Shown here: piece after piece, positions 6,374 to 34,326 of the stretch
How positions within the stretch are numbered: the first letter of the stretch is position 1
Layout of the letters: each line of letters begins with the position of its first letter
From: Amphiscolops sp. MND2022
Taxonomy: Eukaryota
Direction of reading: 5' to 3'
DNA length: 64,000 nt
Assembly (NCBI GenBank): GCA_964187785.1
Contig: OZ076409.1
Span: 29,080,001-29,144,000 of the forward strand
Notes under the pieces: model-generated
Told to the model about the DNA's origin: nothing
Seen by the model: the letters and a program-made list of their open reading frames with translations, nothing else
Databases searched by the model: none
Made by a program: the position numbers and the translations under genes

Positions 6374-6589
6374 AACTTTTTGTTTTTCCTTTCGCTCCTT
6401 TTTTTGTCCGCTCGATTAAGTTCAGTGAATCGACACGGAGTTTACTTGAAACAAATACGTTACCTTTTCTTTTAATGTTAATTTGTGATGTCCTATTACT
6501 TCCCCTGGTATTACCCTTAAAATGACCTATGGTGTTACCCTACTATCAAGTGTGAAACAATCGACCTGCACTCTTTCAGAGTTTCCGTC

Positions 6590-11753: not shown

Positions 11754-12487
11754 TGTAGCGATTACCTATCGAGTACACGATTTCGAAAATTTCGATGAAA
11801 ATTTCGTTCAAGGGACTATATCCCCTCTACTGAAAAGTCATATTCCGCTGGACGGCAGCGTGTCTTTATTCAAGTACCTGCCCACAGAATTGAAGAAAAT
11901 TTGAGCAAAAGACTCCGGGCAGACCCCAACCGAACGAGAAGACTGCAGAAAAACACGGCCGCTGTCAGGAAAAGACTCAAATTTCTGTCAAAACGGACTG
12001 AACTTTGTTCTAGCCAGTGCTTTCTTCAGCGAAGCGTTACAAGACGCTGTGATTACCGAAAATGAGTCAATTGGCTTGACCAAGCATCCGTGCTTGTGTC
12101 CCCGGCTAATTGCTGCCTCAAAAGTGCTAATTATGTAGTTATTTTCGTATTTTCTTGTTGTAACAGCTCGTGAGCTACTTATTTCGATTTCCTGTGTAAC
12201 TTCGAAAAAACTTGATTTTTCCTTTCCACCACTTGCATTTTTTAAAGGCTATCTAAGCGTTGGTTCCGAAGAAAAAGCGTAATGCGCGCTACTGTTAGCA
12301 ATTACAGACTGGATCAGGCCGGCGAGCACTTCTTAAGAAGCGGAATCCTCCTCTGACGGGACATTTCTTACCCGAAGGAGGCAAAATGGACTCATGGCCA
12401 TGGGCGCCTGTCCCGGGCAAATACCCATGTCATGTGTTCCTCCTGCTCTTATGGTTACGGCGACAATGGTGAGAGCTTGTCGTTACA
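11754..12487 (+). repeat. 3' LTR of element A (734 bp)
   Basis: TGTAGCG...CGTTACA termini, follows the PPT. Confidence 0.9.
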
Positions 12488-13149
12488 TCTACTGAAAAGT
12501 CATATTCCGCTGGACGGCAGCGTGTCTTTATTCAAGTACCTGCCCACAGAATTGAAGGGAATTTGAGCAAAAGACTCCGGGCAGACCCCAACCGAACGAG
12601 AAGACTGCAGAAAAACACGGCCGCTGTCAGAAAAAGACTCAAATTTCTGTCAAAACGGACTGAACTTTGTTCTAGCCAGTGCTTTCTTCAGCGAAGCGTT
12701 ACAAGACGCTGTGATTACCGAAAATGAGTCAATTGGCTTGACCAAGCATCCGTGCTTGTGTCCCCGGCTAATTGCTGCCTCAAAAGTGCTAATTATGTAG
12801 TAATTTTTGTATTTTCTTGTTGTAACAGCTCGTGAGCTACTTATTTCGATTTCCTGTGTAACTTCGAAAAAACTTGATTTTTCCTTTCCACCACTTGCAT
12901 TTTTTAAAGGCTATCTAAGCGTTGGTTCCGAAGAAAAAGCGTAATGCGCGCTACTGTTAGCAATTACAGACTGGATCAGGCCGGCGAGCACTTCTTAAGA
13001 AGCGGAATCCTCCTCTGACGGGACATTTCTTACCCGAAGGAGGCAAAATGGACTCATGGCCATGGGCGCCTGTCCCGGTCAAATACCCATGCCATGTGTT
13101 CCTCCTGCTCTTATGGTTACGGCGACAATGGTGAGAGCTTGTCGTTACA
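12488..13149 (+). repeat. Second, 5'-truncated copy of the A LTR (662 bp) in direct tandem
   Basis: Near-identical to 11826-12487 with a handful of substitutions; ends CGTTACA. Confidence 0.95.
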
Positions 13150-13636
13150 TTTGATGAATCTTCCAAGCTGCTTGATAAAAATTAAATACAACAGGGAAAT
13201 ATCTTCCCATGAGAATTTCGGAGAGTTTTAGAAAATCATAGGAAAAGTTGCTGGCAACATTAAAGTACATGCAAAATGTTCAAGAATTTTCAACAAGGGC
13301 AGCGCCGCAAAAGGCACAAAACTGTTCAAGCTATTTTTGAAGGAGTATTGTAGCTCAAACAAGAACCCAAAACCCAAAGGTATGCCAAATTGCAGACTTA
13401 GTACAGCTAACTTAGACATGGAATTTTTCACACCGAAAATGTTCATGATATCTCACAGGAAGTTGAAGAGTATTATGTTTTATATGCAGTTTCGCTCGGT
13501 GAAGATTCCGATGAAGATCTTCAGCTCGAGGAACCGCGTTTTTACACTTATCAGTTTCGAAAGTTCACCACAATCGAATGGTGAAACAAACACAGATTAA
13601 TGTGCTTTTGCAATTATGATTTTTTTTCGCATTTGA

Positions 13637-14068
13637 TGTAACGACAGGCTCTCACCACTGTCGCCGTAACCATGAGAGTAAGAGGAACACATGATATGGG
13701 TATTTGCCCGGGACAGGCGCCCATGACCATGAGCTCATTTTGCCTCCTTCGGGTAAAAACTGTCCCGTCAGAGGAGGATTCCGCTTCTTGTGAAGTGCTC
13801 GCCGGCCTGATCCAGTCTGTAATTGCTATCAGTAACGCGAATTACGCTTTTTCTTCAAAACCAACGCTTAGATAGCCTTTAAAAACAGCAGGTGAGGTGG
13901 AAAAGGAAAATCGTGTTCTCTTGTAGCTACAGAGGAAATCGAAATAAGTAGCTCACGAGCTATTACCACGACAAAATACGCAATTTACTGCATAATTAGC
14001 ACTTTTGGGGCAGCAATTAGCCTGGGACACAAGCACGGATGCTTGTTCAAGCTAGTTGACTCATTTTG
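13637..14068 (-). repeat. Diverged A-family LTR (3' part), inverted, running into the gap
   Basis: TGTAACGACAGGCTCTCACC closely matches the reverse complement of the A LTR end; similarity continues to the N run. Confidence 0.9.
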
Positions 14069-14268: not shown

Positions 14269-14752
14269 TAACTTTTCGTATTACCGGGTCTTTTCTTTGC
14301 TCTTTCTGAATGTCTACGGGCTTTGAAGGGGAGTCAATTACTTCAAAGTAGTTCAAAGGGTCATTCTGTTGAATCGAGTTGAGCTCAGGAGCTCTTTTTA
14401 TTTCACAAAGTTCAAATTTAGAATTGTGTGATGCTGAATCCAAAAGGTCATTGAGGTTTGGTATCAGCTGTTGTAGCTGAGCATTCGATTGAAGTGTTTG
14501 TATTAGTTCTTGTGATAGGACTTGATTTGTTGTGTTATAATGTGTGGTTTGTTCTTGTGCTTTTATCATCAACATCGAGGAATCCGGTGTTTTAGCTTTC
14601 ATGTCTAGCTCAATGTGTTTTTTCAGCGGTATTGAATCTAAGAGTTGAAGCTCTAAACTTTGTGTTGGGTCAGTTTGCATTCTTGATAGAAAATCTGCTG
14701 CTGCATTTGCACGACCTGGTATATGCGCTAGAACTATATTGTATGCAATTAC
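14269..14752 (-). pseudogene. Gypsy pol fragment (RNase H end and connection), related to the element C lineage
   Basis: YNIVLAHIPGRANAAADFLSRM and EQRKDPVI match C's FIIAHIPGKNNTAADYLSRM and EQCKDPIL. Confidence 0.85.
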
Positions 14753-15466
14753 TGTAACGATAAGCGCTGGCGCTTGAACCGCAACGTAGAATGGAGGAAC
14801 TAGAACAGCGAATGTAATCCGGGACTTAGATCTCCGCGGCCCTAGCTCATTTTCCCTCCGAAGGAGCCAGTCCCAAGGTGGGGGAACCGTCTTGTTGGAA
14901 ACTCTCTGGCCTGGTCCTAGTCTGTAACTGCTAAAAGTAACGGGCATCTTGCACGTCTCAAGACCACTGCTCAATTAGCCTTTAAAAAGGGGGCTGAAAA
15001 CAGGAGGATGTTGAGCCATAGTATTGGAGAATCTGATAAAATCGACATCAAAAAGGGGTAACCATAGATGTAAATGGGCAGCTCTCGAGCATATCAATCT
15101 ACTACAACAAGAAAAGCACAATAAGCATAACAATATCAGAAGTTTGAGTTATTTAGCAGGAGCGAATTGACCATGGCTTCCCAGCGCTAGCGCTCGTCAC
15201 CGCACAGGACGCCGCAGGATCTTCAGGCGAGCATCTGGAACACCGGTTTCTGTTACCTATGTAGTGCAAACGCCAAAGATGGGCACATCACCGTGTTCTA
15301 GGGACTGTTTTCTACGTCTTCTCTTTTCGTCGTCTCTCGCGGGGGCGATTTCTGATTTCTGATCTGCTTTTTTGACAGGTCTTTCGTCTGGAGCATGTTT
15401 GAGTGCCACGTCAGACTTGAACGAATTTTTGCTTCGAAAATTTTGACATGGGCAGTTGCCGTTACA
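14753..15466 (-). repeat. 3' LTR of B (714 bp)
   Basis: TGTAACG...CGTTACA; no difference from 32907-33620 seen by eye. Confidence 0.97.
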
Positions 15467-16237: not shown

Positions 16238-19200
16238 TTATTGGGCTGAGCTGCGTCGAGCTCGATTCTTTATGGCATCATCGGGAGTTCCTGGATTGCT
16301 GGCATCTTCCGACGCAATTGACGCTCTACGTTGAGCAGGAACCACAGTAACTACTGTTTCCGAGTCTGACAGGTCCTCTGGGAGCGTTAAATCGGCGATT
16401 GGCTGCACCAGGATAGTGCTGGGGGTCAGTTCAGCGTCGTGTTCTCCGGTCTGGGGTTGCGATGACTGAGGACTGGCCTGTGTCGATGGTGGACTCACAG
16501 GCTCTGCCTGCAGAATATGAGTGGGCAAATCCAGAGTCACGGGCCGGTCGATGGGCTGACTTAGTGACATGGCCATTGTGGGTGCCAGCATGGTAGGCGC
16601 GAACGCCTGTTGTCTCTCGAGTTCAGCTCTACTCTCCACGGCCAAGGATATCCGTTTGGAGACCCAGCCAGGCTGACTCCAGAGCTCGCAAGCTCGCTTC
16701 CATTTGGGGAAGCTGGCAATTTCCAGCTCCAAACAATGTCCTTCCCACTCTGCGCGGGCTTCGGAGCCTAGCACAGAATTAATCTCATCGTGTTGGACGA
16801 TGGACATATCCCCTGACATTGTCATCTTGGCCTGCGGTCGCCAGGCAGCTTTTCTTGGGAACGGAATCACGCGGCTCTGCAGGTTCCTCTGGCGAGTCTG
16901 AGCTGCTCCTTCAATCCAGTTTGGGATTTGAGCCAATTCCATATACTGGATTTGTCGATTGAAGGCTTCAGGGGCGCGACCAACGGGTTTTGCTCTAGGC
17001 CATCCCAGTGGCTCCTTCCAATAGTGATTTGGGAAGGTGATGCATTTGAAGGCGTACAGGGGATCTACTGGTGGACCAGCACTAGTGCTGGCACGGATCA
17101 CCTTGCGAATGAACTCCTGCGACCAAGGGAATCTAAAGGGGACTCCATTCAGGCTGAGGGGTGCGGAGTACCAGTTGACTGGGCCGTATTCTCGTGGCAA
17201 AGGGCACGCTTTTCGTGTGCGGGCACGCAACAGACCCATCAAATTCTCTTCTAGTTGTTTCTCCGACTTCAAGGTGGTGTACCCGTGCGGCATCTCGCCA
17301 CTCAATACAGCCTGCACGATTCGCTGATAGGTCAGTGGGGGGCGTCCTTGGAGATAGGTGCAGAAGGAGACCATATGCACCTGTACTGCTCTCGCCAGTG
17401 GTTTGGTGGGATACCGGCACACACCGACCGCACCGAAGATTGGAGCCAGGACGGAAGCCATAACGGCCACGAAGTCTTCCACTTCGGCCAGAGTCAAATC
17501 GGCGATTTGCTGAGGCATGGGGAATCCCGCCGTTTCCGCAGGGAGTTGACGCTCGGAATGGTGGAGGGGTTGCGATTGATCCACGCCTACGAACAAGCCA
17601 GAGGCGAACACTAGGGTGGAGTACAACCAATGTTGGAGGGACGCACGCATGCGTTCCAGCTGGGTGACATAATCTTGCTGGTCCTTGGAATTTAGGAGGT
17701 GGCCCCATCGAGTTAGGCTGCGTAGTTGTCCCTGCGCGAGGATCAGGTAACTGTAAAAGGTGACTAGATCACTGGACACTACCAACTCGACTAGCATAGC
17801 AAGGGGACCTGCCACAAACTTCGTCGGGCCCATGGCTAGCGCGAGCGCTAACATCTCTCCTACAGTAGCTTCGCCGATGGTTTCCAACAATTTGTCGGTC
17901 TGCACATTGGTGAGCAAGTACTCAGAGGCTATTACGTCGATGTTCCAGCCTAGTCCGAGACTGGTACAAAAGGCTTCCAAGGGACAGTTAAGCTCTTGAG
18001 CTACCTCGGCCAGGGTCCTGTCCACGAATCTGGACTGATACCACTCGGCATACGTTATTCCGGCGGCATCTACTTCAGCCTTCAAGTTGGTCGCCTCTAT
18101 AGCCACGACGTACCTCATGCCCACGGGCAACTTGACGGGTTCTATTCCCGCGGCAAACCGAATTTGGGGAATGGTCCTTTCGACCGTGCGTGTGGCAGGC
18201 CAGGTTTCAATTTCCTTCACGAGCTCTGCCAGCTCTGCTCGTACGGGAATTTCTTTGTCCTTCCGCACCAACCAGTTGTATCGTCGGACGGCCTCTCGTT
18301 CACTCATGTTGGATGCCCGCATGACGCGATTCCCGTCCAAGTCGAAGGCCATTCGCCCCATACACATTCCATGATCGAACAGTATGGCGTCGTCGATAGT
18401 CAGTTGTGCATTTCCTGATCGTTCCACAGCGATCAGCACTCTCGACACGGCAGCAAAGAAGGCGGGGTATGACAATCAACCCGCAGATTTGGCGCGCAAA
18501 TAGCAAACTCGATTCGGCGCGCTTTGCATACCTCAGACAGGATGTACACAAATTGCTGCAAGCTTCGTTGCCAATACATGAATCCCGGCGGGGATGCGAA
18601 GAGCGCGAGCGCTCCCAGACGACCCCGAAGGATCCCTGCTGCACGCTCCATTGCGTCTGCAACCACGTTTACTAAGGACGCCACACTCCCAGGTCTACGG
18701 GTATCTGCCATGAGGGCATCCAGGTTGCGTAGCAGTCCTTCACAAGCCATGTGGTCGATCAGATTGGTGAAGACTACACGTCGCGGGGGCGGCTCTCTTA
18801 GGGACCCTCTCAGGTTAGGGTCGTACATGACCGCGACCATCTCCGCGACCTCAGCGAAGCGGGAGAGTGGCATTGTTAATACCAGCACATCGGGCAGAAG
18901 GTTGTCGATGGGGAGATCACTCTTGAGTGTCGAATCTACTGCCACACAATAGCGCGCACGCTGCAGAGCTGCTTTCAAGAGGGGCTTCATTGACTTGATA
19001 TTGCGAGCGTAGCGGGCGTTTGCTTCCCAGGTTTCTCCTTCGTGCAACATGTACCTAGCGGGAAATTGCTCGGTGAGGTCATGCTGCAGGCGAGCCATAT
19101 AGTTGTTGGGTGTCGCGGGCAGTTGCTCTCGAGCACGCTGTTCCCAGGCTTGCTCACTCAAGTCCGCATCACGGGCACGTAGCGACCGAGTTATCTGAGC

Positions 19201-20494
19201 CGCAATGGTGATTCTGCTCACTTCTCTCTGCTCGGCGTTAGACGGCGGTGCTCTCCTTCTAACCGCACATGTGTTCGGGTACAAACACTCTGCCGCCATC
19301 CAGATGCGTTTGCTATCGCCAGTCACCACGGTGCCGGATACATCATCGGACGGGGGAAGAAAGGCGGGAGGACTGGTCTCATCTATTGTCTCGGGCACCT
19401 CCAGGGACATGTTGGCAGAGCCTGTGCCCGAGGGCACAGGACTCGTTTCAGGATTCGCATCCACACTGCCGTAGCGGTTAATGGCCTCTTCCAGGGACAT
19501 CTGAGGCGCGCCTACGCCTAGGTGGCCGACGCGATGTGGAGGCCTCACGACCACCACACTTTTCATCTGCGACTGGTGGGGTACATCTGCTCGCTTGTCC
19601 GGAGGGGGACGACTGGTCGGACTGTCGGTCACGGAATCATGGCGTGTAGCGACGATGTTTTCCTCAGTAAGTCGCTTCCGGCCAGTTTCCTCACGGGGAT
19701 AGGTCATGGCGCTGGTGCTTGGTCCAGCCGTAGTTTCTGCTTCCATAGACACAGCTTCGGCTAGGGTGGTGGGTGGGGTGACGCAGCCCGAGGGCTGAGC
19801 TGCGGCTTGCAAGTAATGTGCCAATCCGGGAATCCTTTGCTCAACTGCACGAACGAAGTCAGAGGAGTTGGGGTAGTTGGCGACAGCCTGCAGGGCCACA
19901 ATCACCGCTTGCTCGCTGGCACTCCGTCCGATCAGATTTAGATTAGGCACTGCTGGCGGTTGGGACCCCGAGGGCTCCCGACTTGAGGCTGGTTGATTGG
20001 TAATGTTCTGCGTCGTCGTTGCCCGGGTTCCATATGGTGCCCCATAAGCAATCGAGCTAGAATGCGGTGTCGTCTGCACTGGATTTGGTGCCGCAATGGA
20101 AGGCAGCGATGGGACGTTAACGGGCATCATACGCAGTGATGTTTCTTGTTCGAATCTGGTGCCCTGGCTGGGGCCATGCACTGCGATTGATCTTTCGTCC
20201 AAGAACTGGTGAGTCAGGGTCGTGCCCATCCCAGGCATTGTTGGTGCACGTCAAGGTGCGACGATAGCTTGCCACCTCCGTGGTGATTGACAAAGATGCA
20301 TTCGGCAGCATTTGCATCGATTCAAGCTGAGTCAGTAGGGCGGCCACCCCAGCTACGGCTACTGGCGAAAGACCGTCCCGCAGCTTTGCTTCGACATATT
20401 GGGCCTGATTGACCCTCTGCGCTCGCGCAGATTCCTGGGGCCTTGCACTATTAGACCCTGTTGCAGGCGCTGAATTGTTTGGGCAATGGGCCAT
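16238..20494 (-). CDS. Third ORF of B, ~1,420 codons, SGNH-like domain; frameshifts near 20240 and 18478
   Basis: ORFs 20117-20494, 18433-20238 and 16238-18475 are consecutive pieces homologous to A ORF3. Confidence 0.85.
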
Positions 20495-20789: not shown

Positions 20790-23444
20790 CTACTTCAGCC
20801 CTATAGTTAATATTGATACATATACGCGGCTATGCAAAACCACGTGAATACCAGTACCCTCGAACATGTTCGTTAGAGTATGGTACAGATTGACCAACGA
20901 GAAAGCCGGTCTCTCGGGATCCAGAATGGGTAGGTGGACCCGTGTGGATCCTTTATCTATCAGGCGCTGTATCAAGTACGTCATGCAACGCAAGTAGTCA
21001 TCTGTCAGCAGCGGTGCGCGCTGGTTAGCACGGACTATCAACAGGTGAATACTTTGGTTAGGGTTGGGGTTCACATCAGGCGGGATAGTGAGAATCTCGC
21101 CCACCTTAGGTCGTAAGGCAAATACATCTTCCATGCCGCACTCCCGCAGCACATATCGCAGGGCGGCAGAGTTGGTCTTTAGGTCAGCAGGGCATGCTAA
21201 CACTATGTCGCCCTCGGCCTGCAAGAAATCGGATTCATCGTAAGAGACGTGTTCGGCTGAATTCGGATACAGGGCTCCCGGGTAAACAATCTCTCGTCCG
21301 GGGTCATTATCTGGGGGCAGACACACGCGATGCGTACGCCCTTGGACTGCAGCCAGGTCTTGCCACACTGAGCGGGGCATCGCTCGATTGTCGCTGCCGG
21401 CCTTTACCCACGCATCTAAAGTTCCCAGGGCGGCTTTGGGGAACAAGGGGATCTCGAAGGTGTGAGTCCACTCATCTAATAGTCGAATTCTGGGATAGGT
21501 GGCGAAACATGTGATTATTAGTTCCAGCCACCACGCGAACTTCATCTTACCTCGGTACCAGTCTATGATATGGAAGCAAAGTATTAAGTCCACTGTGGTG
21601 AGGGTCCTCAGACTCTCTAGACAGGATAACAGATTCAACGGTTCCACCAGCGCCTCCACTCGTGGAGCTGTTACCAGCAGCCACCAGTGAGGAGCCGGGC
21701 TGTATACCCCTCCTGGTTCCACCTGGACTCCATACTTGTCGCATAACAAGTCGGCAGTGATGCATCGGACCATCTGCACAGGTTCTCTTTCAAAATTGAA
21801 TGGTCCAAACGCAATATTACTAGGCACGGGGGGCAACACCGTGGGCAGGGTAAACTCCAGGCCCTTTCCATCGCTAGTCCACTCCTTAAACCTAGGACAA
21901 GGGGCCTTCGCTACCCCAGGCAGTGACAACTTCTCCAGGATAGTGTCCACAGGGTGGTCTCCGGACCGCTCTACAGCTGAGTAGGTTTTCTCGGCCCGCA
22001 CCGTGAGGCGGTACACCAAGTTTTCTCTCTCTTCCGGAGGAACTCCCCGGGCTCCAATGGGAACCCTCCGGTTCTCATTCACAGCTAATAGGCAGACACA
22101 ATCTCGCAGCCCGCAGGTTCCACACTTGTAGCGCGGCTGTCGTTTACTCCTTAGTTGATACCTAAGAGCAGTTGCAGATGCTTCTGTTAGCGTCTCTGCA
22201 GTTCTGGGAGCTTCCGTTTCGGCCTGGATCGCAGTTTCAGTTTCGGCATTTCTCGGTGTTTCTTTCTTCCTCGTCCTTGCCTTCGCTCGGATCAGCCGTT
22301 TCTTCTGTGCCTTGGGTGGTCTCCCCCTCCCCCTTTTAAAAGAAGGAGCGGTCCCCGCTCCTGGCGAAGTTTCGGGAGCATGAGGCGGATCGGGTTGAAC
22401 GTTGCTGTCACTGCTGGCAGATTTGAGGGGAATCGGAGGGGCGGTCGGCCATATGGGATAGTTACTAAGAAAGTTGGTTAGCGAGGGATTCGTCAACAAG
22501 GAAGCTGAGGTTCCTGGTAGCGATGTCTCTTCTTCGGAGGATATCTGTGGAGACGGTGAGCGCACTCGCTCATGGTCAGAGAACAGTTGGGGTAGTACAC
22601 GGGCAGGGGATATCGACTGATCCAACGTAGTCGGAGGAGCCGCAGGCTCCACCATATCCTCGTCAACGGGATTAGGAGGTATTGGCAACATGGCATCGGA
22701 TAGTTCGTCGTCTGTACCCGAGGTGGAATAGTCAAATTGCTGATAATGCGGGCGGGAGCCACATGCGCGAAGTTTCGTGCGTAGTCGAGTGTCCATCCAG
22801 TGACGTCGACGTGGGGGCAAAGATGCATCGGACGCCTCTGAAAGTAGTTGTTCGGGTTTATACGACGATAAAGACTTGTCGTCATCAACTACATCGACGG
22901 AACGTTCAGGTTCGGGGTCCATAAGGACCACCACCTCACCACTGTCCGAGTGTGCGGTAGCAAGTTCAAGTGGGCCACTGTGGTGCGGTTTAAGACGCTC
23001 AAAATGAACCTTTTGACCTGTGTCTAGTACATAGACACGACCGTCCTGAAAGACTTGTACAACTTTGTGCGGGCCTCGCCAAGCACGCATCAATTTCGGG
23101 GAACCCTTTTGCGGTACGTAGCGGCAAAAAACCCAGACGAGCTCGCCTACTTGGTAAGCTCGCGCTTGTATAGCACGGTCGTACTTCAACTTTTGACGCA
23201 ATTGGGCTTGGTGCGTGTTACGCCGTACCAGGTCATGTATTTCCTGTTGGCGAGCCAATACATGATCGACATATGCCTCATGCGACTCGAATGATTTGGC
23301 TGCAAACTCGGGATATAAGAACGTGAGAGGGATGGCCTTCTCTACGCCACGGGTCAGCATGTAGGGTGAGAAGCCAGTGGTGGCGTGCCTCGTAGAGTTG
23401 TAGGCACCCATGACTTCATCAAGACATTGGTCCCAATCGCGCAT
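20790..23444 (-). CDS. Integrase C-terminus (GPY/F-like WRGPHKV) plus extension with AT-hook (KRGRGRPPK), CGTCGLRDCVC and tandem macrodomains
   Basis: Continues the integrase (MRDWDQ..YNSTRHATTGFSP) after a frameshift near 23470, where A reads through in frame. Confidence 0.88.
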   Translation of the reverse strand: MRDWDQCLDEVMGAYNSTRHATTGFSPYMLTRGVEKAIPLTFLYPEFAAKSFESHEAYVDHVLARQQEIHDLVRRNTHQAQLRQKLKYDRAIQARAYQVGELVWVFCRYVPQKGSPKLMRAWRGPHKVVQVFQDGRVYVLDTGQKVHFERLKPHHSGPLELATAHSDSGEVVVLMDPEPERSVDVVDDDKSLSSYKPEQLLSEASDASLPPRRRHWMDTRLRTKLRACGSRPHYQQFDYSTSGTDDELSDAMLPIPPNPVDEDMVEPAAPPTTLDQSISPARVLPQLFSDHERVRSPSPQISSEEETSLPGTSASLLTNPSLTNFLSNYPIWPTAPPIPLKSASSDSNVQPDPPHAPETSPGAGTAPSFKRGRGRPPKAQKKRLIRAKARTRKKETPRNAETETAIQAETEAPRTAETLTEASATALRYQLRSKRQPRYKCGTCGLRDCVCLLAVNENRRVPIGARGVPPEERENLVYRLTVRAEKTYSAVERSGDHPVDTILEKLSLPGVAKAPCPRFKEWTSDGKGLEFTLPTVLPPVPSNIAFGPFNFEREPVQMVRCITADLLCDKYGVQVEPGGVYSPAPHWWLLVTAPRVEALVEPLNLLSCLESLRTLTTVDLILCFHIIDWYRGKMKFAWWLELIITCFATYPRIRLLDEWTHTFEIPLFPKAALGTLDAWVKAGSDNRAMPRSVWQDLAAVQGRTHRVCLPPDNDPGREIVYPGALYPNSAEHVSYDESDFLQAEGDIVLACPADLKTNSAALRYVLRECGMEDVFALRPKVGEILTIPPDVNPNPNQSIHLLIVRANQRAPLLTDDYLRCMTYLIQRLIDKGSTRVHLPILDPERPAFSLVNLYHTLTNMFEGTGIHVVLHSRVYVSILTIGLK

Positions 23445-26400
23445 ACGGCGGGAACAAAAAACTCGCAGTTAGCAGCGTCCGATTTTGGCGCTCGACCAAG
23501 CCTTGGGTTCTCGGATGGCTAGCCGTAGAGGTTACTTTGGTAACGTGGGCTGCTTTTAGGAATTCGTTGGACACCTCGGCAGTCAAATTAGGGGCATTGT
23601 CAGACTGCATCCTAGTGGGTGTGCCATGACGGGCGAACCACTTTTGTAACAGCAACCGAGAGGTAGTCACAGCGTCGTAGTCATGATGACTACAGGGCAC
23701 TGCTTCCGCGAACTTGGAGAAATGGTCAATTATGACCAAGATGCCAGTGTTATTACTGTCTGAGGGGCAGATCTTCAGATGATCATATTGGACCAATTCG
23801 TTGAAGTATCCGCTTTGGATGTTCTTTAGGTGGAATCGGACGTCACCAGGCTTATCTCGAACTTGTTGACAGGTGAGGCATTGGCCAACGTAACGGCCCA
23901 CGCTGCGCCGAATACCAGGCCATGTGTGACGTTCTTGAATCCTAGCCACCACTTTGGAGATACCTTGATGTCCCATGGCGTCATGCGCGCGGAATAAAAT
24001 CTCATGCTGGTACAGTTGTGGCATGACGATCATGCACGGACGTTCGTGCAGGGGACGTTGGTTGGGAGGGTATTGTACGCAAAGTACACCATTCTTGTTG
24101 ATAAACAGGAGGGTTTTCTTCTGGCGGTAGTAGTTGCGTGCGAATTCACGCACGTTCTCGGGAAACACGTCATGATCGATAGATTCGTTCAGCACCAACT
24201 TTTTGAGTGCTAGCACATGAACATCACGGTTTTGGGCTAGAATCAAATCTTTGATACCATGCACGGTGTGAGCATGTTCGTGAAGTTCAGTGTTGATGTC
24301 TTTAAGAGCCGTGATTGAGTCGCGCACACCCGAGGGAGTACCTTGCAACGCAACAGGATTCGCCCCAGCAATAGTATAGACGGTACGTGAGGGTACATTT
24401 ACGGCATGCGTTGGTAATAGATAATCTTCGCGTGCTTCATCAGTCACATCAATCCAGTCCTCAGGGTAGTCTGGATATGCATCCTCGTGCGGTTGCAGAG
24501 CAAGGGAAGGCGGAGGTGGCAAGGGGGCTGCGAATGCTTTTGCTTGTCTGTCCCTCCTGCTCGCTCGTTTGGTGCGGCGAAGCACGCGTAGCAATTGGTT
24601 GGGAGCCTTAGGCTCCAAGTTCTGCAGGTGCGCAGGTAACTCGGGATGGTTCGGGATGACTCGACCCTGAAGGTCGAACCATGGGGCAACAGGTAGTTTA
24701 TCAAATTCGTCAGCTGAAAGAAAGTTCCAGCGTTCGCCCGCAGCTGGCTGCTGTGCAAGCTGTTTTTCGCGGCATCGGTACTCGTTGGTTCGTTTGCTCA
24801 AGCCATCGGCGTTTCGATGTTGGGTCCTCGGGCGGTGTTCCACGCGAAAGTGATATTTCTCCAGGGTCATAATCCATCGGCCGATTAGCGCTTGATCCGT
24901 GGAGTAGGTTTTCAACCAGGACAAAGCTTGGTTGTCCACCCGCAGGGTGAATTTCCGGGGACATAGATAGCTGTGGTTCTTCACTATGAAATAGTAGGCG
25001 GCGAACATTTCAAGTTTGGGGGCTCCGTATTTGGCTTGTGTGGTGGTGAGCTTCTTGCTACCGTAAACTATCGGTCTCAGGCGTCGTTCACCCGGAGGAC
25101 CTTGCCACTGGTGCAGAATACCCGAAATGGCGACAGCACTAGCGTCAGTGTCCAACACAAACTCTCCTTCGGAATCAGGCTGCGCGAGCGCAGTTGCCTC
25201 GATTAGGGCTTTTTTGATCTCATTGAATGCGGTTTGTTGCTCAGGACCCCAGGCGAAGGTGGCATTTAGTCCAGTGACGGCGTGCAGGGGTGCAACCAGC
25301 TTAGCGTGCCAAGGAATGAATTCGCGATAATAGTTGGCGAATCCAAGGAAACTCTGCATCTCCGTCTTGTTACGGGGAATTTCCCAATCGCGCAACTTGA
25401 CGACGGCTTTTGGGTCGGGCTTCACTCCTTCTGCGGACACCACTCGTCCCAAATACTTGATCTCCGATTTCATGAAATCGCATTTGGCCACGCGCATTTT
25501 GAAGCCGGCTTCACGGAGACATTCAAAGACTTCACGTAGGCGTACCATATGGTCTTCCACAGTCTCCGTGGCAATCACGATATCATCAATGTAGGCCATG
25601 ACCATGCTGCCCTCACGATTGACAATATTCCTTAGCGCACGCGCTATTGACCGCTGAAACGTGGCAGATGCATTGCACATACCAAATGGCATTCGCCGCC
25701 ACTCAAAAAGTCCTAGTTCACAAGCAAAAGCGGTTTTGTGGCGATCCGCTTTTCGCACGGGAATTTGCCAAAAGGCCCAAGCAAGGTCTATGCTGGTATA
25801 GATCTTGGCTTTGCCTAGCCGTGCCAGGCTTTCATCAATGCGGGGCAAGGGATAAGCATCCTTAATGGTTACCTCACTTAACGGGCGGAAGTCGCAGCAA
25901 AAGCGCAACTCCCCGTTTTTCTTTTTCACCATTACAATGCCGCTCGCCCAGGGGGACAGCGAGGGCTGTATCATTCCCAGAGCTAAGAGGTTCCGTACCT
26001 CCTGATTGGCACGTTCGGCCTTCTCAGGGGACATCCGGCGAGCACCTTCGCGATGCGGTACAGCCCCTGGTTCCACCTCCACGGTGTGCTTAGCGATAGT
26101 GCACCGACCGATGTCTGCTTTGTGTTTCATGAACAGCTCATCAAATTCATCGAGGAGGTTACGGAGAGACTCGCAGGCGCTAGCGCCCCACAAATCCTTG
26201 ACCGCCTTGAGCTGAGATTCCGGCCCAGGAATCGGAGCCATTAGCTCTGGGTCCGTTCGTTTGCGAATCTCGCGCTCCGATAGTCCTGCCTCGCTAGGGT
26301 CAGTAGAGGACAAAAACTCAAATTCGGAAGAAGAGGTTAACTCAGAAGCAGTGGATAGATTCACTTCACTATAAATTTTATGAACAAAATTTGCACGACT

Positions 26401-29400
26401 GTCGTCGGCGTCAGTTTTTGTGCGGGTTGTAGTGGGAGAGTCCAAACATTGAGGTACTGCTTGGTATACTACCGTTACGGGTACTACGGTGCCCAGTTGT
26501 ACACCACACCGCATGCGTTGAGGGTTGCTGGTGAGATTTATCAGGCTCACAAAGAGTGTTCCTGTCTCACTGACAGTGGCCACGCTGTCCTCTAAAAAGA
26601 CGACATTGTGCAACGTAGTGTCAGACAAAGAGGCATTGAGCGCTACGCTTTGAAAAATCAGCGGCTCTAGTGTGTTGGTGACGAGCTTGGCTCTAGCCAC
26701 CGCTCGTTCGAAAGGTTGCAGGACCAAGTCACTGTCCAAAACGACTGGAGTAGCTATTGAAGTGTCACCTACCTGTGCGTGAGCATGATGCCACACAGGC
26801 TTCACTGGTGCTCGCACCACAATCTTCATAGATGTTAGATCCACTAACACCTGGTAGGAGCGAAGAAAGTTCCGGCCAAGTAGGAAGTCTTCCACACCCA
26901 TTGCATCATCTACCACCACAAAGTTCGTTTCAAGTTCGTATCCTCCCAGCTGGAAATGGATGTGTTCTGCGAGGCCGTAGGTCTTTATTGTCTTCCCGTT
27001 GGCTGCGTACAGGTCAACTTGGTAGGGTTTAAGTACCGTTCCAGTTCGAGCTGCCACTCTGTTGAAGGCGGAAAACGTCAGTATGGAGACGCCCGAGCCA
27101 GTGTCCACCAGCCCTCGCAGCGGAATAGGTGCTGCATGAGGCACCACGAAAGAGACTACGAGCGACGCACGCTCATCTATACGCGCTTCGCCGGTGGGCT
27201 CCTGGTGATTGATGTTATAGCATTTGAGCTCCTGGGGACCCAGACAAATGCCAGGGGGAAATACATCCACCACCACACAGGCTTCGAATTTCATATCCAC
27301 TCCATCCATTGAAGCGCAGACTGGCACTGGGGAATACGTTGTCAGAGTCGCAGACTCTCCCGGAGCGTACCATTCTTTCGGTCGAGGCAACTCGTTTCGT
27401 TTGTAGAGGATAGACAACTCGACCCATAGCTTCGCCAGAGTTAGCGTCGGCCTACGCGTTTGCTCAGCTGCCAGCAACAGGTGAATTGAAATTAGCGTAC
27501 GTCCTTGCGGATCGAACGTTGTGGGTTCCAAGCAGGTCTGAACTTGCTTAGCACCACAAGTGAATGTCATCGGAGTGTGAAACGCAGGCGGTTCCGCTGG
27601 ATGTAGCATTAACACGCGGTCATCCTCCAAAGGTACGGTGTGCGCGGCGATGCCAGCTGATTCGACCTCAGCCCATCGATTGTAGGCTAACTCTTCATTG
27701 GGTTTTGGCGCATGGGAGTGCTCACCACATTGCACTTCCGCCTGATCGAAAAGGCCACAGCTCGCGCATTGATAGATCCCTGGATGACCTTCAAGGATAC
27801 CATCGATCGTGTCCTCCGTGGTCACCTTCACGCCCTCTGGTTCGGAGGCAGTCATTGGTTTTCGAGCTTGGTCACGATTGGGGCACTCGCGAGCAAAATG
27901 TCCGTTTTGCCCACAGTGAAAACAAGCACCTACTGGCGCTCGGACGGGAGCTGGGACAGCCGGAGCTGGGACATTTTGGGGGGGCGCCGGAGGTGGCAAG
28001 ACGCCCTGCGGCATAACCATCTTGTTCGGCGGCAGTGGTGCGAAAGGATGAGGTCTAGACCTCATGGCTAATCGGGGATCATAGGGTTGTTGAGGTTGGG
28101 TGGGTCTGGGACGATTGCGTTGCAGCTGACGCGTGGTAAATCGCAAGGACTCCACGGTAGGGGGTTCGGTAAGAAAAGTTTCCGAGGCGTATACTATAGC
28201 AAGTTCACGCCTCAACACTGGATCTCGCACACCTTCCATGAAGCGTTGCAAGATTTCATAGCGTTTAGTAGTGATACTTTCTTGCGGGAATCCTTGGCTC
28301 CTGAGACCCTCTAAAGCGTCTAAGTACTGCATCCAGTCTTCTTTTTCTTGTTGGACGCGGCTTTGGAAGGTCTGCCGCACCTGCATGCGATTTCCTCCCG
28401 CGCCAAATCGACTAGATAGCAACTCGAACACCTTCTCGGGGGTGTCACGTTCAGACTCTGCCTTGTTGATGATGTAGTTGCGAGCCTCACCTTCGAGGTG
28501 ACCGACAATGCTCCAGGCCCGATCTTCGGCCGAGATTTTGGTTTGGATTCTCTTTAAGTATCGCTGCATTACTAGGATCCAGCCATCAATAGACCCGTCC
28601 TTAGAGCCTCGATACACGCTGGGTTTGGTTTGAGCCAGGTCACGTCCCGCCAGTAACGGTGCCAGTTCTTTGGACATTGCTTTGGAAATGGCGGCAGTGA
28701 ACCTCAATTGCTCAGGAGAGATGACTTCAGCCTCTCCTTCCTTGGGTGCCACATCATCAGTACCGTCGTCACTGCCATGCGTAGCTCGCACTGAGAGGTT
28801 CGTCACGTCTTCTTTCCTGCGAGTGCTACTCGCGCAAGGAGCGCCCGAGGGCATCCCGTCCTCAGCTGTCCAGTCGGCGGTCAGATACAGGGAGTCCGTT
28901 CCAGAAACCATGGTAGGGGCCGTCGCATACGCAGCTCCATCAGTCTGGGACCCTAGTGTGGCCTTAGTACAGGATAAATCAACTTCAGTAGAAGTATCTA
29001 GATAGATAGGTGACATCGGGTCCACACCTTGGTCTCGGGTGGCACTTCGAACTATGGAGGATGTCATTTGGCTCATCGACGAGGAGTCGTGGGGCCCTCT
29101 TACCTGCACCCGTGCAGGTTTACGCTCCACAGCAGCCATGATGGGCACAGGATCCTTGGTTCGGGTTTCAGGCGTTGTCGACTTGGAGGTGCTGGGCTTC
29201 AATACGCTCGCCAACTCGGGTTTTGTTGCCTGACCCTGGTGCGATGATTCCGTGGCCTTAATTGAATCCGCGATCGGCACACCTTCAGTGGCACCAGCTT
29301 GTCGTGGGAGGGACCTTTCGCGCCTCATGATGTTGATAGCATTGAGTACAGTGTGCATTTGGTTACTCAAATCATTGATCTGGGTTTCCACACGAAGTTC

Positions 29401-30231
29401 ACGGGCCATCAAAAGGTCATTCATCTCACCCATTCTGTAGCCTAGTGCATCTACGCGAGCGCTCTGCGTGTTCTGCGCGGTTCGCAGCTGATCACTGACC
29501 TGCAAACCTTCTCGCATCGTTGTCTGCAATGTTCTCATATTTTCTGCGATGGCACGGTGTTGGTCATTGCATCCAGCACGAGTGCTAGCCAGTTCAGCTA
29601 AGGCACGTTGGGTCTCGGCTTGGGCTTCCAATATTGCTGCTTTGTACACCGAAGATCGTTGGGACGATGCCACTGAACCTGCCACGCTCCTCTTACGAGG
29701 CACCTCAACTTGACGTTCACCTACATTTATCATGGGTGGTCGCACTTTCTTGTGTTTGCCATAAGCACAAACTCTAGTGTTACTTCGAGTGACTCCAGAC
29801 CCTTGCGGCCTCGCACCACTCGTGTTCTCCGAGTAGGTAAGATCCTCATCCACCGTGATCTGTAGGCGAGAGCTCATTTTTTCCCCTAGGGGTGCGCGAG
29901 AGCACCCTTCCTCAGCTGCAAGTTCGTTGGTCACGTTTGAGTTGGGCCACTCTTCTTCTGCTTCATTGGCTCTTTCACGACAGGTTTCTTCGACCCATTG
30001 TTCGGTTCGACGAGAGCTTCCAGATGTAACGGAACCCTCAGAGGGAGGGACCATGGCGGCCAGTTCCTCCTTTCGTTGTTGCTCGATAGTGACTTCGTCA
30101 GACATTTCGTCTGAAAAACGCGAACCGTCCATTGTGGATCCTATGGTCACCCATGACTGCGAACTCATGTCAAGCTTTTCCAGGCCTGGTAGGACCATTA
30201 CACACGATGCCAATGGCAGAGCAGGTGTCAA
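23419..30231 (-). CDS. gag-pol: Gag-Pol polyprotein of B (single frame)
   Basis: Coiled-coil N-terminus, capsid-like region, CFHCGQNGHFAREC knuckle, LVDTGSG, YIDD, DTDAS, HHCC, DDE. The true ATG is probably near 30170-30200. Confidence 0.97.
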   Translation of the reverse strand: MTPALPLASCVMVLPGLEKLDMSSQSWVTIGSTMDGSRFSDEMSDEVTIEQQRKEELAAMVPPSEGSVTSGSSRRTEQWVEETCRERANEAEEEWPNSNVTNELAAEEGCSRAPLGEKMSSRLQITVDEDLTYSENTSGARPQGSGVTRSNTRVCAYGKHKKVRPPMINVGERQVEVPRKRSVAGSVASSQRSSVYKAAILEAQAETQRALAELASTRAGCNDQHRAIAENMRTLQTTMREGLQVSDQLRTAQNTQSARVDALGYRMGEMNDLLMARELRVETQINDLSNQMHTVLNAINIMRRERSLPRQAGATEGVPIADSIKATESSHQGQATKPELASVLKPSTSKSTTPETRTKDPVPIMAAVERKPARVQVRGPHDSSSMSQMTSSIVRSATRDQGVDPMSPIYLDTSTEVDLSCTKATLGSQTDGAAYATAPTMVSGTDSLYLTADWTAEDGMPSGAPCASSTRRKEDVTNLSVRATHGSDDGTDDVAPKEGEAEVISPEQLRFTAAISKAMSKELAPLLAGRDLAQTKPSVYRGSKDGSIDGWILVMQRYLKRIQTKISAEDRAWSIVGHLEGEARNYIINKAESERDTPEKVFELLSSRFGAGGNRMQVRQTFQSRVQQEKEDWMQYLDALEGLRSQGFPQESITTKRYEILQRFMEGVRDPVLRRELAIVYASETFLTEPPTVESLRFTTRQLQRNRPRPTQPQQPYDPRLAMRSRPHPFAPLPPNKMVMPQGVLPPPAPPQNVPAPAVPAPVRAPVGACFHCGQNGHFARECPNRDQARKPMTASEPEGVKVTTEDTIDGILEGHPGIYQCASCGLFDQAEVQCGEHSHAPKPNEELAYNRWAEVESAGIAAHTVPLEDDRVLMLHPAEPPAFHTPMTFTCGAKQVQTCLEPTTFDPQGRTLISIHLLLAAEQTRRPTLTLAKLWVELSILYKRNELPRPKEWYAPGESATLTTYSPVPVCASMDGVDMKFEACVVVDVFPPGICLGPQELKCYNINHQEPTGEARIDERASLVVSFVVPHAAPIPLRGLVDTGSGVSILTFSAFNRVAARTGTVLKPYQVDLYAANGKTIKTYGLAEHIHFQLGGYELETNFVVVDDAMGVEDFLLGRNFLRSYQVLVDLTSMKIVVRAPVKPVWHHAHAQVGDTSIATPVVLDSDLVLQPFERAVARAKLVTNTLEPLIFQSVALNASLSDTTLHNVVFLEDSVATVSETGTLFVSLINLTSNPQRMRCGVQLGTVVPVTVVYQAVPQCLDSPTTTRTKTDADDSRANFVHKIYSEVNLSTASELTSSSEFEFLSSTDPSEAGLSEREIRKRTDPELMAPIPGPESQLKAVKDLWGASACESLRNLLDEFDELFMKHKADIGRCTIAKHTVEVEPGAVPHREGARRMSPEKAERANQEVRNLLALGMIQPSLSPWASGIVMVKKKNGELRFCCDFRPLSEVTIKDAYPLPRIDESLARLGKAKIYTSIDLAWAFWQIPVRKADRHKTAFACELGLFEWRRMPFGMCNASATFQRSIARALRNIVNREGSMVMAYIDDIVIATETVEDHMVRLREVFECLREAGFKMRVAKCDFMKSEIKYLGRVVSAEGVKPDPKAVVKLRDWEIPRNKTEMQSFLGFANYYREFIPWHAKLVAPLHAVTGLNATFAWGPEQQTAFNEIKKALIEATALAQPDSEGEFVLDTDASAVAISGILHQWQGPPGERRLRPIVYGSKKLTTTQAKYGAPKLEMFAAYYFIVKNHSYLCPRKFTLRVDNQALSWLKTYSTDQALIGRWIMTLEKYHFRVEHRPRTQHRNADGLSKRTNEYRCREKQLAQQPAAGERWNFLSADEFDKLPVAPWFDLQGRVIPNHPELPAHLQNLEPKAPNQLLRVLRRTKRASRRDRQAKAFAAPLPPPPSLALQPHEDAYPDYPEDWIDVTDEAREDYLLPTHAVNVPSRTVYTIAGANPVALQGTPSGVRDSITALKDINTELHEHAHTVHGIKDLILAQNRDVHVLALKKLVLNESIDHDVFPENVREFARNYYRQKKTLLFINKNGVLCVQYPPNQRPLHERPCMIVMPQLYQHEILFRAHDAMGHQGISKVVARIQERHTWPGIRRSVGRYVGQCLTCQQVRDKPGDVRFHLKNIQSGYFNELVQYDHLKICPSDSNNTGILVIIDHFSKFAEAVPCSHHDYDAVTTSRLLLQKWFARHGTPTRMQSDNAPNLTAEVSNEFLKAAHVTKVTSTASHPRTQGLVERQNRTLLTASFLFPPYARLGPMS

Positions 30232-32873
30232 CGATTCGGACGTAACCTTTAAAGAAGCCTCGAAGAACGCGGGATTTGTCGAGTCGCTGTTAGCTCTAGG
30301 CTCGTCTCGGTGTGGACTTAAGAAATTTGACTGTTTCGCAACGTCCCAAATTTCTCGAAATACGTTTTAAGGCTCGTAGGCTGTTCAAATTTGCACAGCG
30401 CTTTTCCACAAGCACACTGGGCCAGAAAATCAACCTGGTTCAGGGCAAAACGTCTCCGGTCACTCACAGGAAGAATTTCAAAGATTTTTTGGATTTTCCA
30501 AAATTTGCACTACAACACTCAAGAGGCTCGTGTGTGCGCTGGAGGCGCTGTATCAAGCCCAAAATTGACCAGCAGATCTTAGGTACGTGTAGGTTTACGA
30601 AAATAAACACAGAATTGAGCTGCACCCCTTCTACGCAGTTTCACCTAGGTACAGACGAGCGGTACCACTATGTACCGGGATACACTGTTTTTCACGTCTT
30701 TTTCAAGATTGCGGTTTACTGAAAAAAAGCTAGCAAGCTCAAATTCTCTGCAACGACGTAGGAACTAGCACAGGTTACGATGGTGGGCTGCAATATAGAC
30801 CCACCCGTCGGCTAAGGTACCCGGGTTACTTGGAAAAATTAAGAAAAAACTGCCTTTTTGCACACCTTTTTGGGCGCCGCGTTTTTCCTATTTTCTCGAC
30901 AAGTATCGCACAGATCGGCACCAAACTTGATAGTTTATGCCAGTGGGCACCTACAATGCCACTGATATGGTCGAATTGAAGCGCAAGCGCTTATTTGAAG
31001 TTCCGACCCACTATGTACGTTGTACACGAAAAAACACTGTTTTTGACGACTTTTTTCACAAATTGACCAAGAGGATCACCTCAGAAAGTGATACGGCGGG
31101 CAAAATGGGACCAACGTGTCGCCCCACTATCCGTAGCACTGGGATAAACCCTCAATTGGTTGTGCCCGTTGGATATAAGGCACTGACAGTCCTGCAGTTT
31201 TGGATTTTTTCGGCTTTTTCAGCTTCTCTGGAGTCAAAACGTCAGAGAGCTTTTCTCGACTTTGGGGAACGATACGCCCACCAAAATTTCGGCACTAACG
31301 TTACTTTTTGTGGTGGTTACGAAAATGCAACCACTTTTTGGCTAGGGTTCAGGAATCGATGACCCGACCCTAGCTCAGAGACAGTCCGGTTTTGTGGAAA
31401 ATTGATCAAATCCAGTGCGTTTTTCCACTTTTCTCAGCACTGAATGGGAGTTTTTGCACGCGGTTTTCACCACAATGCGTTATTTTTTTTATAAAAACAG
31501 AAAATGAGAGCGCGGAAGCTCCTAGCTAACAAAAAGACAGAGTGCCCAGGGGGTTTTAATTGTGCGCTGGGACACTCCTGAAACTAACCAAAATTATAGG
31601 TTTTTCAACTTTTCTCAACATTGAAAAGGAATTTCTGCACGCGGTTTTCACCACAATGCGCTATTTTTATTGCTAGAACGGAAAATAAGAGCGTTCAAAC
31701 TCGCTCTGGTCCACTAAGCTTCACACTTAAGACTTTCAGACAATGCACTTTCTATGCTTAAAAACACCTAAAATTACCGGTTTTTTGCACCGTGTCAGCC
31801 CCAGGCTGCCTGAATCCGCTGTAAAAGTTACAGTTAGTGTCCTGTGGGTTTACTACGCTTGACAAAACACCGTACACTGCTTTTTCGTACTTCTACACCA
31901 GTGTACGCCTGTGTTTCTGGGTGCCATTTTGGTCAAAATTCCACTTTTTTGCAATTTTCTGGTGCTAGATCGGCACTTTTATCACAACCAAAGGCAAAAT
32001 TACGGCCTTCTGTGCCTCGTGCTCGCTTTCTCGAGCCTTGCAGCTGCTTTTTACAACACTTTTCACGAAGTTTTCCTGGCTCCGCTGAGCACAAGTGCTC
32101 AAAACCACGAAAAACACGAAAAAAAACGCAAAATCAGGGTTTTTTCACGCAAGTGCTATCTTTTTTACAGAAAAGCACTTCGTAGGGTGTCGTTACATCT
32201 ACAATAAAACATTACTGACCTGCACCAACGATTCCCCGTCGAAAAAGGTGCATTTTCAAAAATTTCACCGACCATGAGCCATTTGAGCGACGCGTCCGGT
32301 CACAGGGGGTGCACCTTCACCACGCTTTTTCTCCACATCCAGACCAGATAGAGACACGCGGTTTGGACCATTGGCATCGTCTGCAATTGCACTTGCTGTC
32401 CACCAAAAACCATACCTCTAGGACGTCTCCACGAGAAATGGGAGTAGGAAGTAGGCAACACACAATTTGACTTCCCCTTCGCCTCGCTGGTTCATGGTCA
32501 GCCATCCACCAGTCACCCTCTTGCATGGCATAAAATGGCTGAAAATAGCTTGCAAAACCTGTTAAACACCCGTAGCCACGTGCTACGGTCTTCAGCACCT
32601 GCAAAAAGATACCCGCTGATGGGCACACAACACATCACACAAAAATATCGATTTCCTTCCAAAACACCTAAAAATACCATTTTCGCACCTGAAAACGTGA
32701 TTTTTTCGGGTTTTCTCTGGTTCAACGCCTCTCCCAGTTCCAGTAGAATGTCACACGACTAAAAAAGGGCAAAACTCTGCTTCTCTCTCCTTCTTCAGAG
32801 TCAAAACGGGCTTGGCGCTGATTACCAGGGGGCCAGAGCTTTTAAAAACCGCTAGGGAAAGCTTCCCAAGACG

Positions 32874-32891
32874 ATCCCTCTGTGGTCGCCA
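32874..32891 (-). promoter_or_regulatory. Primer binding site of B, tRNA-Arg-like
   Basis: TGGCGACCACAGAGGGAT, complementary to a tRNA 3' end ...ATCCCTCTGTGGTCG-CCA like metazoan tRNA-Arg(TCG); identical 18-mer in D. Confidence 0.8.
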
Positions 32892-32906
32892 AAAAATGAG
32901 GTTCTA

Positions 32907-33620
32907 TGTAACGATAAGCGCTGGCGCTTGAACCGCAACGTAGAATGGAGGAACTAGAACAGCGAATGTAATCCGGGACTTAGATCTCCGCGGCCCTAGC
33001 TCATTTTCCCTCCGAAGGAGCCAGTCCCAAGGTGGGGGAACCGTCTTGTTGGAAACTCTCTGGCCTGGTCCTAGTCTGTAACTGCTAAAAGTAACGGGCA
33101 TCTTGCACGTCTCAAGACCACTGCTCAATTAGCCTTTAAAAAGGGGGCTGAAAACAGGAGGATGTTGAGCCATAGTATTGGAGAATCTGATAAAATCGAC
33201 ATCAAAAAGGGGTAACCATAGATGTAAATGGGCAGCTCTCGAGCATATCAATCTACTACAACAAGAAAAGCACAATAAGCATAACAATATCAGAAGTTTG
33301 AGTTATTTAGCAGGAGCGAATTGACCATGGCTTCCCAGCGCTAGCGCTCGTCACCGCACAGGACGCCGCAGGATCTTCAGGCGAGCATCTGGAACACCGG
33401 TTTCTGTTACCTATGTAGTGCAAACGCCAAAGATGGGCACATCACCGTGTTCTAGGGACTGTTTTCTACGTCTTCTCTTTTCGTCGTCTCTCGCGGGGGC
33501 GATTTCTGATTTCTGATCTGCTTTTTTGACAGGTCTTTCGTCTGGAGCATGTTTGAGTGCCACGTCAGACTTGAACGAATTTTTGCTTCGAAAATTTTGA
33601 CATGGGCAGTTGCCGTTACA
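32907..33620 (-). repeat. 5' LTR of B (714 bp)
   Basis: Direct repeat of 14753-15466. Confidence 0.97.
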
Positions 33621-34326
33621 AACCATTGAGGCACGATCGTACTAAGATCTTGCCTATTTAGCTTAATTTAGATCAATACGTTGAAAGTAACAAAATAGTT
33701 CAACAAATTATTTGTAAAAATGATTTCCTGTCCGAGACGACAAACCCACACGTTGAAGCAATAACGCTTTGAAAATTTTTTAATGTCTCCAAAGGGTCGA
33801 CCCCTTCAATGTTTTTGACATTCCGCAACAAATTGGATTTCCAAAAAGCCCAAAGGGCCCCCTTTTACAATTTTCGGCATTGTGAGATTTTTCAGAAAGA
33901 TTGTTTTTTGTCCTAAAATTCGGTTTTCTCTGTGGCCCAACACTATAACCGAATGTTGTTTTTTTTGTTCAAAGAACGGCGTTTACTCTGTGCAACTTTT
34001 TTCTAATTATTTTTATTGAAGCCCCCTTCGATTTCTACTAGAAACGAAATGTTTTGCAACCATAGAAGACTCCTTAGGTTTTTCGGCACTATGCCACTTA
34101 GCGGAGACCTTGATCAAAAAATTTTCAAACAATTTTGAACTAATCTTTCCTCGATTTTTTGAGAGGTTTTCGGTAGAGCAAAATCTGTTTTGTTGTCTCC
34201 AGTTGAGGAAAAAGTGGTTTTCGAGTCTTATATGTATCCCTTTTGGGACTGTAAAATTGACAAAATGTTAACAATAGTGTCCTTTTGCATACTAAAAAAA
34301 CTTTACTTCTTTGAACATTGAGCGGG

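Follow-up and report, generated by a model that had tools for sequence, protein, structure and literature searches.

What does a retrotransposon gain from a pair of macro-like domains at the end of its integrase? The question was raised by a 64,000-nucleotide stretch of DNA (the window) from a 1.07-Gb eukaryotic genome, in which an initial annotation had proposed tandem TARG1/Poa1p-like macrodomains fused to the integrase end and had suggested that these could target integration or antagonise ADP-ribosylation. The element concerned, element B, is an 18.9-kb Ty3/gypsy-type retrotransposon on the minus strand, where all of its features given below lie. It is bounded by 714-bp TG...CA LTRs (5' LTR, 32907-33620; 3' LTR, 14753-15466) that are 100% identical to each other, and it has the order protease-RT-RNase H-integrase, a polypurine tract before the 3' LTR and a PBS-like motif (TGGCG; 32882-32891) after the 5' LTR. 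Pfam recovered a zinc knuckle, protease, RT, RNase H and integrase in that order, and the gag-pol frame (23419-30366) covers the zf-CCHC, protease, RT, RNase H, integrase zinc finger and most of the integrase core. About 200 additional residues between RNase H and the integrase zinc finger (24700-24100 region of Pol) are partly conserved across families and gave no Pfam match. A genome search with the 346-aa tail returned at least 117 matches, all 97-100% identical (117 scored of 4,323 candidates), and copies of the tail were present on all large contigs; the family is young and abundant.

The same annotation had placed the pair in a second element as well, and it is there. Element A, on the plus strand, belongs to a family related to that of element B and is broken at several points; its macro pair (5339-6343) contains an in-frame stop codon inside domain 1 (5534-5536). 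Between families A and B the pair is 47-61% identical in amino acids. Most of the element A 3' LTR (11826-13158) is tandemly duplicated with a 662-bp period at 98.5% identity, and an inverted 89% copy of part of this LTR lies at 13636-14067, adjoining a 200-N gap. The window also holds the start of a gag-like ORF (61697-64000) that is worded similarly to the Gag of the macro-pair clade and is cut by the window end, and a third, unrelated Gypsy-like element (35873-51209, minus strand) with a dUTPase-like stretch, a 5-bp duplication (ATGAT), terminal repeats of ~1.4-1.6 kb, which extend into the first ORF of the element, and two plus-strand ORFs without a Pfam match (421 aa, 39257-40522; 389 aa, 41996-43165).

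We examined the fold of each repeat by profile and by structure prediction. Pfam gave no match in 20790-21830 and no macro match in 15 relatives, and single-sequence phmmer found nothing in the PDB; a macro match here is therefore not trivial. A first profile also failed to match any PDB entry, and a second reached only E 0.57. In contrast, a profile of domain 2 (37 sequences) retrieved five TARG1 sequences at E 1.5e-5 to 2.6e-5, with the next match at E 0.31. In an AlphaFold2 model of the tail (mean pLDDT 67), TARG1 was the top Foldseek match (E 1.3e-7), and VIA-align superimposed the domain 2 model on TARG1 with Z 16.2 (rmsd 2.7, 141 residues aligned), followed by DarG (15.2) and Poa1p (13.8). 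An atlas search placed domain 2 with a Macro cluster at 0.90, rank 6, and gave no usable match for domain 1. Domain 1 modelled with its flanks (76 sequences) reached pLDDT 90.2 and pTM 0.84; TARG1 was again the top Foldseek match (E 3e-5), and VIA, here a re-ranking of the Foldseek matches rather than a wide search, gave Z 13.3 (rmsd 2.7, 116 aligned, model residues 72-188).

The two domain profiles aligned with each other by hhalign (P 92%, score 45, against 15 for a reversed control and 30 for the best of 39 block shuffles), in the register that had been proposed between the repeats. Compared with the intact macrodomains of the same genome, domain 1 scored only 21 (P 3.5%), within the range of block-shuffled controls, which leaves its own model and its similarity to domain 2 as the only links between domain 1 and TARG1. 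A match of profile A3, considered as support for domain 1, stemmed from domain-2 columns and has no bearing on domain 1. Both repeats are thus predicted to be TARG1-class macro folds, domain 2 from profile and model and domain 1 from its model, the outcome on which the initial annotation had staked its proposal. This shared predicted fold and the alignment of the repeats to one another make duplication the likely origin of the pair.

In the minus-strand frame 23468->20790 (892 aa), predicted pseudo-macrodomain 1 occupies 21471-21827, with VRCITADL at 21770-21747 and WLLVTA at 21683-21666. About 9 residues of its first glycine loop are missing in the alignment. Roughly 70 residues before it and 40 after it co-fold with it outside the macro match: a predicted N-terminal extension of beta strands and a helix (21828-22034; model residues 1-69, pLDDT 78-95) and a C-terminal one of a strand and two helices (21342-21470; residues 189-231). 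Predicted pseudo-macrodomain 2 follows at 20817-21263, with HVSYDESDFL at 21251-21222 and LPILDPERP at 20933-20907.

We next considered whether the pair is truly part of the integrase polyprotein. The window copy of element B has a frameshift in the integrase core, where frames 30366->23419 and 23468->20790 overlap, and its tail is out of frame with the rest of Pol. However, about 48 of the 117 close genomic matches, counted by eye, lie in single frames of 3,146-3,195 aa that run from Gag to the macro pair; the corresponding frames are ~3,292-3,310 aa in family A and ~3,116 aa in family C. In nine copies picked for their long frames the alignment extends without exception from the protease through domain 2, and three integrase core motifs are retained in all nine; a database protein (P0024) spans RT to domain 2. 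Because many copies hold integrase and macro pair in one frame, the fusion is real at the gene level; the annotation was right on this point for the family, though not for the copy that it described.

Downstream of the frameshift, the segment 22335-23468 encodes the end of the integrase core, the integrase C-terminal part and a low-complexity linker of ~275 aa. The linker is poorly conserved, at 31-44% identity between distant families versus 64-88% for the integrase C-terminal part. It is followed by an AT-hook-like motif (RGRGRPP, 22314-22334; Pfam AT_hook E 0.37, short of the cut-off) and by a Cys4 motif (YxCGTCGxRxCxC, 22092-22130) that from its alignment probably binds metal and lies where model confidence is low. 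GRP motifs of the AT-hook-like kind occur in 8 of the 9 long frames, the ninth not having been scored, and the Cys4 motif likewise in 8 of 9. A Pfam chromodomain is absent from the tail, whose folded parts are the macro folds.

Beyond the pair lies a second ORF (16238-20250), which is split here into two frames (20250-18433 and 18475-16238) and is ~1,430 aa long in unbroken copies. It is also found in element A (6521-10960, plus strand) and at L123, L126 and L128, is 25-84% identical between families, and is missing from two family-C copies (L124 and L125) whose close relative L128 has it. It has no Pfam or PDB profile match; a likeness to SGNH esterases, noticed by eye, found no support from either source.

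From this architecture we tentatively favor, while rating it somewhat short of probable, the reading that the twin pseudo-macrodomains form with the AT-hook-like and Cys4 motifs a non-enzymatic docking tail on the integrase. The post-integrase position and the precedent of the chromoviruses speak for it, and the median pI of the two domains is mildly acidic (5.7 and 6.3, versus 9.4 for intact macrodomains), which favors a protein over a nucleic-acid ligand. Against it stands the long variable linker, a possible site of protease cleavage. A possible but rather unlikely alternative is that the element's protease releases the pair, which would then act by itself as an accessory protein with a host protein or RNA as its ligand, in the manner of the SARS-unique domain. 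Besides the linker, the prediction that domain 1 and its extensions fold as a self-contained unit is in keeping with release; so is the report, in the part of PMC5928194 available to us, that TARG1 binds RNA outside its pocket and that this binding persists in the two mutants tested, G123E included, and the SARS-unique domain itself offers a precedent (PMC2674928, available in part). However, the AT-hook-like and Cys4 motifs immediately precede the pair in each of the families seen, and the acidic pI is ill-suited to RNA binding.

We then compared both domains with the ADP-ribose site of TARG1. In the accessible text of PMC6397177, D20 contacts adenine, the GxG loop the diphosphate, and H32, S35, T83 and D125 the distal ribose, with K84 and D125 responsible for catalysis; the family is described there by the pattern TKx(30,35)Px[IL]GxGxD. 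This pattern was found in 0 of 145 domain-1 and 0 of 105 domain-2 regions, compared with 11 of 20 single-macro loci of other lineages, and GxGxD is absent from all 250 regions, in agreement with the altered Gly-rich loops that the annotation had noticed in both repeats. Residues were counted in non-redundant rows at an 85% cut (49 for domain 2 and 54 for domain 1, with rows of more than 30% gaps dropped), many of them likely decayed copies, and TARG1 positions were mapped by gap-free alignments around P118.

In domain 2 the phosphate loop reads DPERP at the GCGLD position in the window copy, and across the family G121 is replaced by D (41/44), position 122 is Pro and G123 is replaced by E (34/45). 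K84 is R in 44 of 49 rows and retained in one; D125 is P in 28 of 43, the residues there being P, S or G. In loop 1, H32 is replaced by L, I or M, S35 by P (44/48), G43 by A (42/48) and I44 by A (27/48). D20 (36/42), T83 (35/49) and D37 (37/48) are retained, D20 in the window copy as well, and P118 is retained in part. Domain 1 has DWYRG at the GCGLD position in this copy and shows G121->D (48/54), G123->Y/F (48/54), K84->A/S (51/54) and G at 125 (49/52); K is not among its commonest residues at position 84, and in the hhalign register the D20 position of the window copy is Asn. A D-x-x-R motif, new and conserved, is present in both domains. On these residue patterns we infer that both domains are inactive.

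The retained residues of domain 2 bear on a further reading, in which this domain would be a non-catalytic reader or decoy that uses a rebuilt pocket to bind an adenine nucleotide or an ADP-ribose mark. D20, T83, D37 and the basic residue at 84 would suit it, as would the modelled match to TARG1 over 141 residues, and the retention of D20 makes some nucleotide binding possible, a point against a purely docking tail. On the other hand, Asp 121, Pro 122, Glu 123 and the S35->P change crowd the diphosphate and distal-ribose sites, and I44 is mostly Ala. In human TARG1, according to the consulted part of PMC5928194, any one of the substitutions G123E, G43E and I44E removes both ADP-ribose binding and catalysis, so that G123E alone stops binding. 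We consider this reading unlikely.

Less likely by far is that the pair is an active ADP-ribose eraser countering a host PARP defence. Its TARG1 ancestry fits, and pressure of this kind is likely in the host, since at least five other retroelement lineages (L074-L094) keep one mostly intact-looking TARG1-type domain. Yet in both domains the K84/D125 catalytic pair and the phosphate-binding GxG loop have been lost across the family, and these losses argue against an anti-PARP role; the suggestion that the pair antagonises ADP-ribosylation is not supported.

The other lineages came from a Pfam Macro search of the genome (at least 24 matches; 150 scored of 294 candidates), and they bear out the annotation's remark that single macrodomains occur in some retroelements. 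The domain takes three positions in Pol: at its end (L074/L075 and L086), between RNase H and integrase (L080) or after the protease (L085 and L092). Where found, the RTs of these lineages are 21-34% identical to that of the tandem clade. Because other lineages of the same genome carry a single macrodomain at the end of Pol, a post-integrase macrodomain is not in itself special; a dead and doubled one is.

To see how the pair has evolved, we calculated dN/dS (Nei-Gojobori) for 11 subfamily pairs, of which seven were saturated, two nearly identical and two informative. With dS close to saturation in three of the four domain values, L113/L119 gave 0.04 for domain 1 and 0.05 for domain 2 (dS ~1.7), with 0.02 for RT and 0.11 for the linker, and L117/L121 gave 0.11 for domain 1 (dS 0.52) and 0.07 for domain 2 (dS 1.6), with 0.01 for RT and 0.14 for the linker. 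As judged from these substitution rates, both domains are under purifying selection. Their divergence nevertheless outpaces that of RT and integrase, with 43-45% identity for the macro domains between families B and C, versus 82% for RT and 67% for integrase. Domain 1 had been called eroded, a misleading term for a domain that is under no less constraint than domain 2 and has acquired additional structure at its flanks. That the domains are decaying baggage without function, as the loss of the active site and the faster divergence might suggest, has next to no chance of being right: the dN/dS values of 0.04-0.11 largely refute it, every family seen retains the pair in frame, even in copies without the second ORF, and both domains share the new D-x-x-R motif. 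With the site lost and the fold doubled, such strong selection argues that the domains have a second job, and the combination of lost site residues and conserved domains is what a docking tail would show, although the near-saturated dS values also weaken that reading.

The integration footprint of the clade is unusual. In flanks of paired or solo LTRs at loci that included L133-L192 and L225-L254, 27 of 34 sites of families A, B and C showed 3-bp target duplications. Family A had 3 bp at 6/6 sites and family C at 11/14 (permutation mean 1.1, maximum 5). Family B, as read from the printed flanks, had 3 bp at 10/14, one of 5 bp and three without an exact match; among the last is the window copy, with GTT/GTA (14750-14752 and 33621-33623). 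Several of the exceptions agree at two of three bases even though their LTRs are 99-100% identical. Four other elements, read by eye, had duplications of 5, 4, 5 and 5 bp; they comprise the third element of the window and three control loci (LTR pairs were found in 4 of 9 control elements, with both ends usable in three). In this set, elements with one intact post-integrase macrodomain or none had duplications of 4-5 bp. The accessible part of a plant survey of LTR elements records only 4-6 bp, a range that its finder may impose (PMC6317226); a 3-bp duplication outside this range marks a Gypsy variant, and the Gypsy assignment stands.

The start of reverse transcription may be unusual as well. 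The spacer between LTR and PBS-like motif is 15-16 nt in families A, B and C (15 nt, 32892-32906, in element B) versus 0-1 nt in two controls, which implies either that priming follows a different route or that an exceptionally long end has to be trimmed. Three short sequences from the complement of the spacer, looked for in the LTR as a sign of self-priming, were not found there.

As for targeting, the 3-bp sites vary in sequence, and 28 sites of families B and C showed no sequence or GC preference, with a flank GC of 0.35-0.37 at every scale. None of 28 family-B flanks matched the clade's own polyprotein. The annotation's suggestion that the tail targets integration keeps its plausibility by position, AT-hook-like motif and Cys4 motif, but the 28 flank pairs showed no target preference; the lack of any preference in GC, sites or contigs counts against docking too. 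So does the fact that the 3-bp footprint and the tail share one clade: their link amounts to one co-occurrence, a single evolutionary event.

A search of representative sequences gave 247 relatives at E<=0.001, and the following holds among the 150 matches listed. Two proteins on short contigs, P0248 and P0231, have one such domain, with DPGRG at the loop and no domain 1 upstream, and are nearer to intact macrodomains (E 1e-11 to 1e-13). No metagenome locus was found for P0231. The best identity in this genome for P0248 and for the tandem protein P0158 is only 34-36%, and for this reason both single and tandem forms likely occur in other organisms. Since the single-domain relatives read DPGRG, a plausible order of events would be capture of a TARG1-type domain, then change of the phosphate loop, then duplication.

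Our preferred reading, the docking tail, would accordingly run as follows. An ancestral element would have captured a TARG1-type domain, whose phosphate loop changed first and which then duplicated. The tail, with its AT-hook-like motif, Cys4 motif and pseudo-macro pair, would stay on the integrase and hold a partner protein while insertion takes place, with chromatin or the integration complex itself as the likely candidates. In its fullest form, a captured ADP-ribose eraser would have turned into a duplicated, non-catalytic integrase tail, by which the complex would attach to chromatin and to which the 3-base stagger, shorter than the usual 4-6 of LTR elements, would belong; this whole chain we regard as doubtful.

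Single TARG1-type domains in retroelements suggest that host ADP-ribosylation is used against them, and the tandem clade shows a further step, with the enzyme site gone, the fold doubled and strong selection. The domains are small, soluble-looking and testable alone, and intact relatives in the same genome can serve as controls. If general, the 3-bp footprint means an integrase with unusual cutting geometry. Some LTR finders require a duplication of at least 4 bp by default, and such finders would miss 3-bp elements. In a literature search on macro or TARG1 domains in retroelements or integrases, conducted mostly by listing, no tandem or inactive macro tail was found, and the part of PMC5408684 available contains no mention of 'macro'; PMC4695847 and PMC11088682, likewise partial, provided general background. 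The finding is real and better supported than the annotation could make it, with a different meaning: two conserved, probably non-catalytic macro folds carried by the integrase of a retrotransposon clade that also leaves an unusual mark where it inserts. The 3-bp target duplications of its three families, which the annotation had not described, fall below the 4-6 bp given in the available part of the plant survey (PMC6317226).

Four known systems invite comparison. Human TARG1/OARD1 (C6orf130; PDB 4J5Q/4J5R/4J5S and 2LGR), with the DarG/Poa1p class, is the top structural match of both domains and the top profile match of domain 2. Identity is 13-20%; D20, T83 and P118 are partly retained in domain 2, whereas K84, D125, the GxG loop and the G41/G43/I44 loop are replaced, and in domain 1 loop 1 is incomplete and additional strands and helices are present. 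The macrodomains of the other retroelements in this genome are of the same fold class, and those of L074/L075 and L086 are also at the Pol end, but they are single, mostly keep TK and GCGxD, and in the three examined go with 4-5 bp duplications; macro domain ORFs are also noted in fish endogenous retroviruses in the accessible part of PMC4977317, citing Basta 2009. The SUD-N/SUD-M domains of coronavirus Nsp3 are also macro folds arranged in tandem within a polyprotein, and ADP-ribose is not bound by them, as given in the available part of PMC2674928; their origin is unrelated, and they bind G-quadruplexes through lysines, in contrast to the mildly acidic domains here. Fusions of Chromo and PHD domains with transposons have been described (10.1101/2021.11.30.470311, available in part), and the chromoviruses, Ty3/gypsy elements with a chromodomain after the integrase, similarly captured a cellular reader fold at the integrase end. 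That fold is a different one, and the targeting published for chromodomains can be extended to the tandem tail by analogy only; type II chromodomains, in the text available of PMC6317226, have also lost their ligand residues or cage.
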